A stretch of 32,000 nt of DNA from Clostridium facile (GCF_014297275.1 NZ_JACOQK010000001.1:1453584-1485583), one strand, 5' to 3'; positions 18,619-19,855 are shown, numbered from the stretch's first letter. The notes: generated by a model not told the origin, from the sequence alone. Numbers and translations: made by a program.

Positions 18619-18666
18619 AAAAAACAGGCGGTTCCCTCTGGTATAAAACCAGAAGTTTACCGCCTG
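18619..18666 (-). terminator. Rho-independent terminator after the Cys-rich protein gene
   Basis: Minus strand: CAGGCGGT...ACCGCCTG outer stem with an inner CTGGT/ACCAG pairing, followed by T6 (A-run 18619-18624 on the plus strand). Confidence 0.8.
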
Positions 18667-18677
18667 AGTTGATGGAA

Positions 18678-19481
18678 CTATTTGCCGCATTCTCCACAAT
18701 CACTGCTGCAATCATCAATGCGGGGTGGGAAAAATTGATCCACTGGGAATTGAATTTTTTCAAAGATGTCGCAAGGACTATCTGATGTGGTGGTGCATTC
18801 CTTATCTGGAATACAAAAATCATAAACAGGGATCATCATTTGTACTTGGCGTTCCAACTGGATAATGGAAAACAAGCCAATTGTCACAGTAACCATCCTT
18901 TGTGGTAATACACATTCAAAGGAACCTTCAAATTGTTTGCATACACAGTTTGGAACGGAAATACAACAATCCAGGTTTGGTTCTGGGCAATCACACAAAT
19001 CACAGGAAAGCAACATAGGCTGTGCCACCTGCAAACGTGCCTTTGGAAGGTATTTTGGCGCAATATAATCCTGTTCATTCTGATCGTTAGTAAATACTTT
19101 TACACTGCCTTCGCTGCCATATAAGATTACTTTTTTGTTCGCTGTTGCCAAACCGCACACAGCTGTCGGCGGATTAACCGGAGATGTATAGGCATCTAAC
19201 TGAACCAAGAAAAAATATGTGATGTCCACCGAATAAAACCCTTTGTTAAACGGTACCGGCTCAACCGATAAATAGGCGCTGGCAACATCCACGTTTTTTG
19301 CTTTTACTGTGTAAGCAGTATCGATAATAGGCTGGGTAACATCAGTAAAATACACCCTTAAGTCAGCAAGACAATCCTTATCTCCACAGGAATCGTAAAT
19401 CCTTGCGGCATCGATACAAACGGCTTCTTTAAATTCGTCAGAATTTCCACAGCCAAATGTGCCAAATTGATTTTCTGCCAT
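18678..19481 (-). CDS. Uncharacterised cysteine-rich protein (267 aa, 19 Cys, no signal peptide)
   Basis: ATG at 19481 sits 6 nt after a perfect AGGAGG. The N-terminus has C-x-...-VCIDAARIYDSCGDKDCL, there is a central CDLCDCPEPNLDCCISVPNCVC cluster, and the C-terminus is DDCSSDCGECGK. I recognise no family. Confidence 0.8.
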   Translation of the reverse strand: MAENQFGTFGCGNSDEFKEAVCIDAARIYDSCGDKDCLADLRVYFTDVTQPIIDTAYTVKAKNVDVASAYLSVEPVPFNKGFYSVDITYFFLVQLDAYTSPVNPPTAVCGLATANKKVILYGSEGSVKVFTNDQNEQDYIAPKYLPKARLQVAQPMLLSCDLCDCPEPNLDCCISVPNCVCKQFEGSFECVLPQRMVTVTIGLFSIIQLERQVQMMIPVYDFCIPDKECTTTSDSPCDIFEKIQFPVDQFFPPRIDDCSSDCGECGK

Positions 19482-19539
19482 AAGAATCCTCCTATAATAA
19501 AATGATATTGAGGTATACCTCGGAAGCAATTGCTTACTA

Positions 19540-19566
19540 TATCATATGTGAAGGATTCAAAATTGT
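19540..19566 (-). promoter_or_regulatory. Sigma-K-like promoter candidate upstream of the Cys-rich gene
   Basis: The minus strand reads AC, 16 nt, then CATATGATA. This matches the short B. subtilis sigma-K consensus AC-N16/17-CATAnnnTA. It lies about 60 nt upstream of the ATG. Confidence 0.3.
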
Positions 19567-19583: not shown

Positions 19584-19778
19584 TTATAGCCCTGCTCCAA
19601 AAATTTGATTGATATAATCGTGCATTTCCTGTTTGCTGTGAATACTGTGCGTATGGTCAATAATAGCGGCTTGTTCTGGCTTGGATAAATCCACAAATTT
19701 TTTCATTGCGTCTGTGTTTTGTGCCAATGCCATTCCCAAACCCATTGGTAAATCTTTTAAATTGATTTCTGATTTCAT
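19584..19778 (-). CDS. Small hypothetical protein (64 aa, predicted helical)
   Basis: GAGGTG RBS 7 nt before the ATG. The sequence MGLGMALAQN..AM..F..L....Q..I......I.SK.EM...I looks like a conserved small Firmicute protein type, but I cannot name a family. Confidence 0.65.
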   Translation of the reverse strand: MKSEINLKDLPMGLGMALAQNTDAMKKFVDLSKPEQAAIIDHTHSIHSKQEMHDYINQIFGAGL

Positions 19779-19826: not shown

Positions 19827-19855
19827 ATAATACAAGAAAAAGCTTTTCTTATCAA
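19827..19855 (-). promoter_or_regulatory. Sigma-A-type promoter for the 64-aa ORF
   Basis: The minus strand reads TTGATA, a 17-nt spacer, then TATTAT. Its -10 box overlaps a plus-strand TGCTATAAT extended -10 (19823-19831) facing the pncA-like gene. Confidence 0.5.

Follow-up and report, generated by a model that had tools for sequence, protein, structure and literature searches.

[quoted passage not shown] We propose, with a probability of roughly 0.8, that the protein belongs to the CsxA family as a structural component of the outer spore envelope, in an exosporium-like or outer-coat lattice layer. The proposal draws on the homology to CsxA, on a distribution that follows the sporulation proteins SpoIVA and SipL, and on a conserved sporulation-type promoter; together these support the spore coat or exosporium role that had been suggested from the sequence. 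A large family of “hypothetical proteins” is thereby tied to CsxA, the sole exosporium scaffold of clostridia with an assembly that is understood.

The gene and its product

The open reading frame, which starts with ATG and ends with TAG, is a real, conserved, monocistronic gene (Table 1). The strong ribosome-binding site before the MA(E/D) start is kept across the orthologues, and because these begin at the same residues behind the same strong site, the ATG, and not an upstream TTG, is the true start. A consensus terminator scan 3′ of the gene gave no match; the hairpin emerged by folding of the 76 nt past the stop codon (ΔG −27.4 kcal/mol, z −5.73), and none of 200 shuffled sequences was equally stable. 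Since folding yields this hairpin followed by U6, the gene has its own terminator. It is present as a single copy in its own 2.74-Mb genome.

The protein contains 19 Cys residues, at positions 11, 22, 32, 37, 109, 160, 163, 165, 172, 173, 179, 181, 190, 223, 229, 237, 258, 262, and 265. They make up 7.1% of its residues, versus 1.7% in the other window ORFs of at least 200 aa. Direct reading of the translation shows an N-terminus without a hydrophobic segment, from which we conclude that the protein has no export signal. The protein is thus Cys-rich, apparently retained in the cell, and predicted to be a product of the mother cell. An earlier reading of the DNA (the sequence-only reading) had described an AGGAGG ribosome-binding site, a terminator of the gene's own, 19 Cys (about 7%) in three clusters, and no export signal. 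Each of these features was found again: the site lies 6 nt before the ATG and is alike in the orthologues, the recount of Cys gave the same number, and the three clusters are all present as quoted, with one additional Cys at residue 109.

Table 1. Features of the CsxA-like gene and its flanking signals, in positions of the window.
Feature	Position	Strand	Basis
CsxA-like Cys-rich protein gene, 267 aa, 19 Cys	18678..19481	minus	ORF and translation; CsxA-family homology
Sigma-K-type promoter motif (predicted): AC (19565-19566), N16, CATATGATA (19540-19548)	19540..19566	minus	Sequence and orthologue conservation
Ribosome-binding site AGGAGG	19488..19493	minus	Sequence; 6 nt 5′ of ATG
N-terminal motif KEAVCIDAARIYDSCGDKDC, codons 18-37	19371..19430	minus	A1 and A2 invariants; hhalign
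Central Cys-rich loop, codons 160-190, 8 Cys	18912..19004	minus	A1 column Cys frequencies 0.3-0.6
C-terminal signature VTVTIGLFSIIQLERQVQMMIPVYDFCIPDKEC...PCDIF...FFPPR, codons 196-254	18720..18896	minus	hhalign; HMM matches; reciprocal match
Intrinsic terminator: interrupted 16-bp hairpin, then U6	18619..18666	minus	RNA folding

Downstream of the gene, a thyX-DUF896-tmk... string is served by a sigma-A-like promoter of its own; upstream lie a 64-aa ORF that is unconserved and matches nothing in Pfam, a gene of the isochorismatase family, and one resembling clpC. A conserved operon was considered and rejected: synteny with thyX/tmk, which are housekeeping genes, was seen in 12–16 of 80 related loci, and the upstream neighbors were not conserved. 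No conserved partner gene was found across these 80 loci, and we conclude that the window gene has no functional partner beside it.

Homology to CsxA

A protein search with the 267-aa sequence returned 2301 clusters (90% identity) at E ≤ 1e-3. All are about 260–290 aa long and all are labeled “hypothetical”; they come from Oscillospiraceae, Ruminococcaceae, Acutalibacteraceae, and “Clostridia”, both metagenome-assembled genomes and isolates. A GTDB scan with one genome per species gave at least 596 loci/species, among them the genera Merdimmobilis, Pseudoruminococcus, Neglectibacter, Massiliimalia, Anaeromassilibacillus, and Acutalibacter. Searches of Pfam, NCBIfam, and PDB sequences with the protein itself found no match (Pfam at E ≤ 10, in a copy without PF27077), and Pfam scans of six relatives returned noise only. 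The same NCBIfam and Pfam copies match CsxA no better than the window protein. In precomputed annotation, PF27077 is present on all CsxA homologues and on 4 of the 120 listed members of the window family, and is absent from the cluster of the window protein itself.

The sequence-only reading could assign the protein to no named family and had proposed sensitive profile searches. Such searches gave a near full-length link to CsxA, and the protein can therefore be placed in the CsxA family. A profile of the window protein's family (A1, an alignment of 40 sequences) was searched against 399 sampled Clostridia genomes and had matches in 218, strong in many families and followed by a weak tail. Five weak matches were taken for inspection. 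They are Cys-rich proteins of 213–293 aa with the architecture of the window protein, carrying VCIxVPKVFDQCxxxxC near the N-terminus and ITLGxFIIVKxExVVQLLIPxYGYC...C..F...FP near the C-terminus. One of them, matching A1 at E 3e-9, is called “exosporium protein CsxA” by NCBI (Clostridium, MULTISPECIES; Clostridium sporogenes/botulinum), and its identity as CsxA rests on these NCBI names. A related Acetivibrio protein bears the UniRef name “SipL SPOCS domain-containing protein”.

For profile comparison, an alignment of the CsxA family (A2) was built. The hhalign comparison of A1 with A2 gave a probability of 98.4% (E 4.3e-15) over 207 columns, pairing residues 18–257 with residues 25–262 of CsxA. 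Comparison with a single CsxA sequence gave 96.4% (E 1.4e-9) and supports the C-terminal block. In the reverse direction, the A2 profile, run over the whole genome that carries the window in six frames, had the window gene as its sole match (E 3.5e-10). Six Cys pairs are aligned between the window protein and CsxA (C22/C29, C32/C39, C37/C44, C223/C231, C229/C237, and C237/C244), and the core Cys residues of CsxA that are invariant or near-invariant in A2 (C29, C39, C44, C231, and C244) all have counterparts in the window family. The two families thus have two non-Cys motifs and five to six Cys in common, and their Cys content is equal (6.5%). The hhalign probability, the reciprocal sole genome match, and the aligned Cys establish homology with CsxA at the level of sequence. 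BLASTP of the window protein against CsxA gave 23% identity over 256 columns and 35.8 bits, which explains why ordinary BLAST annotation never joined the two families.

The similarity might alternatively be a compositional artefact of two Cys- and beta-rich proteins, the window protein then having an unrelated function in sporulation. The low pairwise identity and the failure of the curated models (NCBIfam and the Pfam copy without PF27077) to match either protein would agree with this. However, the signature blocks consist mostly of residues other than Cys (KEAVCI..RIYD; ITxGLF.IV..E..VQ.MIP.Y.FC; FP..FFPP) and occur in the same order at both ends, the profile matches are reciprocal and unique in whole six-frame genomes, and a bridge between the families is formed by intermediate relatives at E values from 1e-25 to 1e-8. 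We therefore give almost no credence to an artefact and regard the window family, on the evidence of its sequences, as a divergent, unannotated, and widespread subfamily of the CsxA family outside the genus Clostridium.

Conservation within the window family is concentrated at the two ends of the protein. In A1, C22, C32, and C37 are invariant inside KEAVCIDAxRIYDSCxDKDCL, and C223, C229, and C237 are conserved at 85–97% (C223 and C237 at 90% or more). The number of Cys per protein ranges from 9 to 25, and the central and C-terminal Cys differ in number and place. Codons 196–254 form the best-conserved block in common with CsxA, and it is there that the A1 HMM matches on CsxA and other distant relatives fall. 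The loop of codons 160–190 is set apart because it varies among the relatives, and not by model confidence (pLDDT about 80–95 as block means). By analogy with the CsxA model (bioRxiv 10.64898/2026.09.03.749163), this loop is a candidate region for cross-linking of a lattice.

Distribution among sporulating Clostridia

The relation of the family to sporulation was examined in an evenly drawn sample of 61 Clostridia genomes, 49 of them SpoIVA-positive and 48 with SipL. The family was present in 36 of the 49 SpoIVA-positive genomes (30 strong and 6 CsxA-like weak matches) and in none of the 12 SpoIVA-negative genomes, and SipL shows the same pattern; since relatives are not independent, the distribution is given as counts alone. 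The family thus tracks SpoIVA and SipL. The sequence-only reading had named, as contrary to a spore role, homologues mainly in non-sporulating lineages and a match to an enzyme family. Among the sampled genomes of non-sporulators none had a homologue, and no such enzyme match was found. Because the family is missing from 13 of the 49 SpoIVA-positive genomes, it is a lineage-variable component of the envelope and not a core or essential part of sporulation.

A conserved sigma-K-type promoter

The motif upstream of the gene stands in the context GCAC-AA...N16...CATATGATA, and its 3′ end is 58 nt before the ATG. The −35 element “AC” and the −10 element “CATA---T” fit the sigma-K consensus known from studies of the B. 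subtilis regulon. The pattern AC-N16/17-CATAnnAT was found in 54 of 73 orthologue upstream regions (74%) versus 3 of 246 controls (1.2%), and the strict Bacillus sigma-K form AC-N16/17-CATAnnnTA in 15 of the 73 versus none of the 246; the controls were the upstream regions of other RBS-supported ORFs at the same loci. The sigma-K-like motif pointed out in the sequence-only reading is thus conserved among orthologues and rare elsewhere at these loci. Genome-wide, nine RBS-supported ORFs, the window gene included, carry the motif at a suitable distance, and one of the eight others matches the YtaF sporulation-membrane-protein model at 81 bits, below the curated cut-off of 149.6. An intact sigK is present in the genome; at 298.7 bits it lies barely over its curated cut-off of 298.65.

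These results suggest that the window gene carries a conserved sigma-K-type promoter and that its transcription may depend on sigma-K. The −10 elements of sigma-E and sigma-K promoters resemble each other, so the assignment to sigma-K is less than certain, and sigma-E may be the factor involved.

The promoter and the distribution also bear on an alternative along lines raised in the sequence-only reading: a cytoplasmic protein that binds metal, resembles metallothionein, or senses redox state, with its Cys as ligands and no part in spore structure. The 19 Cys include CxC, CC, and CxxC spacings, and metal binding by the invariant C-x9-C-x4-C is conceivable in principle. However, no metal-cluster, zinc-finger, or redox family was matched in Pfam, NCBIfam, or PDB, most Cys positions vary among the relatives while five to six are conserved, and the homologue CsxA has been shown to form disulfide-linked arrays. 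A sporulation-type promoter and a distribution confined to sporulators likewise speak for a spore protein, and we consider a metal- or redox-based function highly improbable.

Predicted structure

The AlphaFold2 (AF2) monomer predicted from A1 is of moderate confidence (mean pLDDT 75.7), with values above 90 over most of residues 31–120 and 151–210. The model is essentially all-beta, and its high pLDDT over residues ~31–120 agrees with the beta-rich middle region described earlier from the sequence. The first and last strands are unusually long (residues 20–44 and 195–218), a feature of the model that is compatible with strand exchange between subunits, as a resemblance only.

A Foldseek search of the monomer against PDB found nothing at E ≤ 0.001; the top matches (actin-capping protein, SecB, and secretins), with TM-scores under 0.2, were dismissed as noise. 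The SPOCS model PF12673 (DUF3794) gave no Pfam match to the window protein at E ≤ 10. With hhalign, neither 30 SipL proteins nor 87 SipL repeat units taken separately reached a probability of 1% with A1; A2 likewise showed no similarity to the 87 units, and no sequence-detectable SPOCS structure was found in PDB. A SPOCS fold of the window protein would thus be carried over from the AF3/Foldseek result reported for CsxA in a preprint (bioRxiv 10.64898/2026.09.03.749163).

Orthologues split by recombinase elements

The window's own gene is intact, whereas many genomes from at least four coded GTDB families have the gene split, with the break at profile positions ~150–165. At least seven genomes have it interrupted in the same codon region by elements of 1.4–12 kb. 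In one genome (G036), the half-genes share a strand and are separated by 9.1 kb; this stretch contains a 279-aa ORF, genes for two proteins with SLH domains, and, abutting the 3′ half, the gene of a serine recombinase of 283 aa (Resolvase and Recombinase domains). In each of the seven further split loci inspected, an orthologous recombinase (49–58% identity) adjoins the 3′ half. Where a contig carries both halves, the gap ranges from ~1.4 kb (the recombinase plus a single small gene) to ~12 kb.

Two to three codons are present in both half-genes (..PKAxV[D/E]V / [E]VVDPI..), and joining the halves at this overlap restores the family consensus in frame; even crudely joined, the split genes align to the family profile at E ~1e-87. 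By manual reading, the crossover falls within the ..V-[D/E]-V.. codons, with the exact dinucleotide not fixed. An automatic junction search picked chance k-mers and was discarded.

Elements that break up sporulation genes until their excision in the mother cell are known: skin in sigK, SPbeta in spsM, gin in gerE, and yin in yabG (PMC4191935, PMC5595907, PMC10747680). The elements in the split orthologues have the same anatomy, and this match supports, independently of the evidence above, that the family works in the terminally differentiated mother cell. The split variants are apparently undescribed in the literature searched. They also provide a new system in which programmed gene reconstitution during development can be studied.

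Discussion

For many gut commensals that are strict anaerobes, spores are the means of surviving oxygen and of moving between hosts. To our knowledge, next to nothing is established about what the outer spore layers consist of except in Bacillus, C. difficile, and C. sporogenes. Our study provides a candidate spore-surface lattice protein for gut bacteria of the Oscillospirales type and indicates that the CsxA family reaches well beyond the genus Clostridium; in the literature searched, no paper connects CsxA to Ruminococcaceae or Oscillospiraceae.

We infer the timing of expression, the oligomeric state, the formation of a lattice, and the layer formed as follows. Late in sporulation, the sigma-K RNA polymerase of the mother cell would transcribe the monocistronic gene from the AC-N16-CATATGATA promoter, as the conservation of the motif suggests. 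To judge from the sequence, the strong ribosome-binding site would allow abundant synthesis in the mother-cell cytoplasm, and the product would not be exported. The beta-rich core would then fold, with the N-terminal (E-x-VCI...YD-x-C-x4-C) and C-terminal (ITxGxF..VQ[ML][ML]IPxY[DG][FY]C) strands shared with CsxA, and the five to six core Cys conserved as in CsxA may pin this fold. By homology with CsxA, subunits may interlock through beta-strand exchange into trimers, and the trimers into a two-dimensional lattice around the forespore. The variable Cys loop (160–190) and the C-terminal CxxxCxxC tail could finally form cooperative disulfide cross-links, giving a highly resistant layer.

With an identity to CsxA as low as 23%, the protein may have taken on a different function, in a coat or parasporal layer or in morphogenesis. 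The protein would then be a CsxA-family morphogenetic organizer or a component of another layer (inner or outer coat, or CsxC-like parasporal or interspace crystals) instead of the outermost basal layer, a reading that overlaps our main proposal. The group formed by CsxA, CsxC, CdeC, SipL, and CotE has reportedly diversified into structural and morphogenetic roles (bioRxiv 10.64898/2026.09.03.749163), and no collagen-like or glycosyltransferase gene lies beside the window gene. On the other hand, a Cys content of 7.1% fits the structural, cross-linked class of these proteins, unlike that of the Cys-poor organizers, and a separate SipL (three DUF3794 repeats and LysM), encoded next to SpoIVA at C1:173-175 kb, is available for the morphogenetic role. 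The genome also encodes one collagen-repeat protein (462 aa, C1:1881538-1882926, ~409 kb away). Its gene, the only one of its kind in the genome, has a sigma-K-like AC-N17-CATATGGTA upstream, which suggests that a BclA-like nap protein may exist and is compatible with a hairy nap. We consider a role in another layer or as an organizer less likely, and favor a structural lattice protein of the outer spore envelope.

A bolder suggestion, for which we would offer clearly less than even odds, is that the window family, and not CsxA proper, is the main self-assembling, disulfide-locked lattice protein of the outermost layer in much of Clostridia, dominant in Oscillospirales-type gut commensals, with its production gated in several lineages by developmental excision of a small serine-recombinase element at one fixed codon region. 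If this is true, the family would add an as yet unreported target to sporulation-specific gene reconstitution.

Comparison with known systems

The sequence-only reading had invoked the logic of CdeC/CotY/CotZ-type spore layers. The general part of this idea, a structural Cys-rich protein of the spore, is supported by the CsxA homology, the distribution, and the promoter, while homology to CotY/CotZ/ExsY is absent. These Bacillus proteins are likewise Cys-rich and assemble by themselves in the mother cell into disulfide-linked hexagonal arrays. However, they are not homologous to the window family, and their model PF10612 (Spore_coat_CotZ) gave no match at E ≤ 10. They are described in the literature as analogous, with a different fold.

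CsxA reportedly has the fold of SipL, SpoVID, and CotE (SPOCS, DUF3794, PF12673). In contrast, the window protein has no detectable sequence or profile similarity to these proteins, and SipL and CotE are Cys-poor organizers. A likeness, by description, is seen with CsxC of the C. sporogenes parasporal layer, CdeC of C. difficile, and CsA/CsB of C. sordellii, which are Cys-rich, made in the mother cell, and predicted to be beta-rich, trimer-forming scaffolds of cross-linked spore layers. They are tied to CsxA through the predicted fold and not through sequence (bioRxiv 10.64898/2026.09.03.749163).

CsxA itself, in C. sporogenes/botulinum a protein of 299 aa and 25 Cys, self-assembles into a disulfide-linked hexagonal array that forms the exosporium basal layer (PMC7333573). 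When CsxA is deleted the exosporium is lost, and the protein has been modeled as a trimer of intertwined subunits whose fold resembles SPOCS/DUF3794 (bioRxiv 10.64898/2026.09.03.749163). The window family, which no source has named and which shares only ~23% identity with CsxA, occurs in Oscillospirales-type gut bacteria, that is, in another order than Clostridium sensu stricto. The window protein is without the N-terminal FIPRPGxVNKQGxLPDP extension of CsxA, and its gene is not clustered with collagen-like or glycosyltransferase genes, near which csxA is often, although not obligatorily, located. Against these differences stand a near full-length homology (hhalign 98.4%) between proteins of similar size (267 versus 293–299 aa), a Cys density of ~6.5–7%, and the absence of a signal peptide in both. 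The two families have in common the N-terminal E-x-VCI...[FY]D-x-C-x4-C and the C-terminal ITxGxF..VQ[LM][LM]IPxY[DG][FY]C..PC..F, five to six aligned Cys, and a variable Cys-rich central loop and tail.

Results and Discussion

In at least four coded GTDB families, orthologues of the CsxA-like gene were found in two pieces that break within one fixed codon region (L129 in genome G036, shown in the table; other split loci L130-L135 and L120/L125). At split loci with both halves on one contig, the halves were 1.4-12 kb apart. A serine recombinase of approximately 283 aa, orthologous among the elements, adjoins the 3' half of the gene, and the cargo varies between a single small GAF-like gene and two SLH-domain proteins. 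The split halves could be joined in frame, restoring the family consensus. The element looks like a new sporulation intervening element of the skin/SPbeta/gin type; no description of it was found in the literature searched.

Positions of the features discussed (G000, the C. facile genome; C1, contig; L-codes, loci with local coordinates)
Feature	Position	Strand
Split locus L129	G036:C1:30800-42609	
N-half of CsxA-like gene	L129:10971-11555	-
C-half of CsxA-like gene	L129:1490-1885	-
Serine recombinase	L129:1854-2705	-
Putative 64-aa ORF	window 19584-19778	-
Its sigma-70-like promoter, TTGATA-17-TATTAT	window 19827-19855	
Motif-bearing ORF	G000:C1:2425602-2426156	-
Motif-bearing ORF	G000:C1:200831	+
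Motif-bearing ORF	G000:C1:1140611	+
Motif-bearing ORF	G000:C1:911092	-
Collagen-triple-helix repeat protein, 462 aa	G000:C1:1881538-1882926 (L136:1039-2424)	+
SipL homologue (504 aa), then SpoIVA	G000:C1:173064-175302 (L081)	same strand

A distant family member, L124 (G311:C37), has 384 aa with 37 Cys, and its long, low-complexity C-terminal tail of (DR)n/CDRDRDRD takes the Cys-rich tail to an extreme.

The putative ORF directly upstream of the C. facile CsxA-like gene had no Pfam match and a counterpart in none of 80 related loci. Downstream of the CsxA-like gene, at a distance of about 7 kb, lies a U32 peptidase gene (window position ~11429). In C. sporogenes, the csxA cluster has zapA on one side and a U32 peptidase gene on the other (PMC7333573); the proximity in both organisms may be a coincidence.

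Across the whole C. facile genome, the sigma-K-type motif AC-N16/17-CATAnnAT occurred on only nine RBS-supported ORFs. Besides the CsxA-like gene, these include one that encodes a YtaF-like sporulation membrane protein and three whose small products have no family match, all four being candidate late mother-cell genes. The single collagen-triple-helix repeat protein of the genome (Pfam Collagen, E 7e-33) is a candidate for a BclA-like "hairy nap" protein; its gene carries AC-N17-CATATGGTA directly 5' of the RBS and is located approximately 409 kb from the CsxA-like gene, not beside it.

The C. facile SipL homologue contains three DUF3794/SPOCS repeats with a LysM domain at the C-terminal end, and sipL is located immediately upstream of spoIVA. 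In C. difficile, the gene order is spoIVA-sipL, the reverse of that in C. facile.
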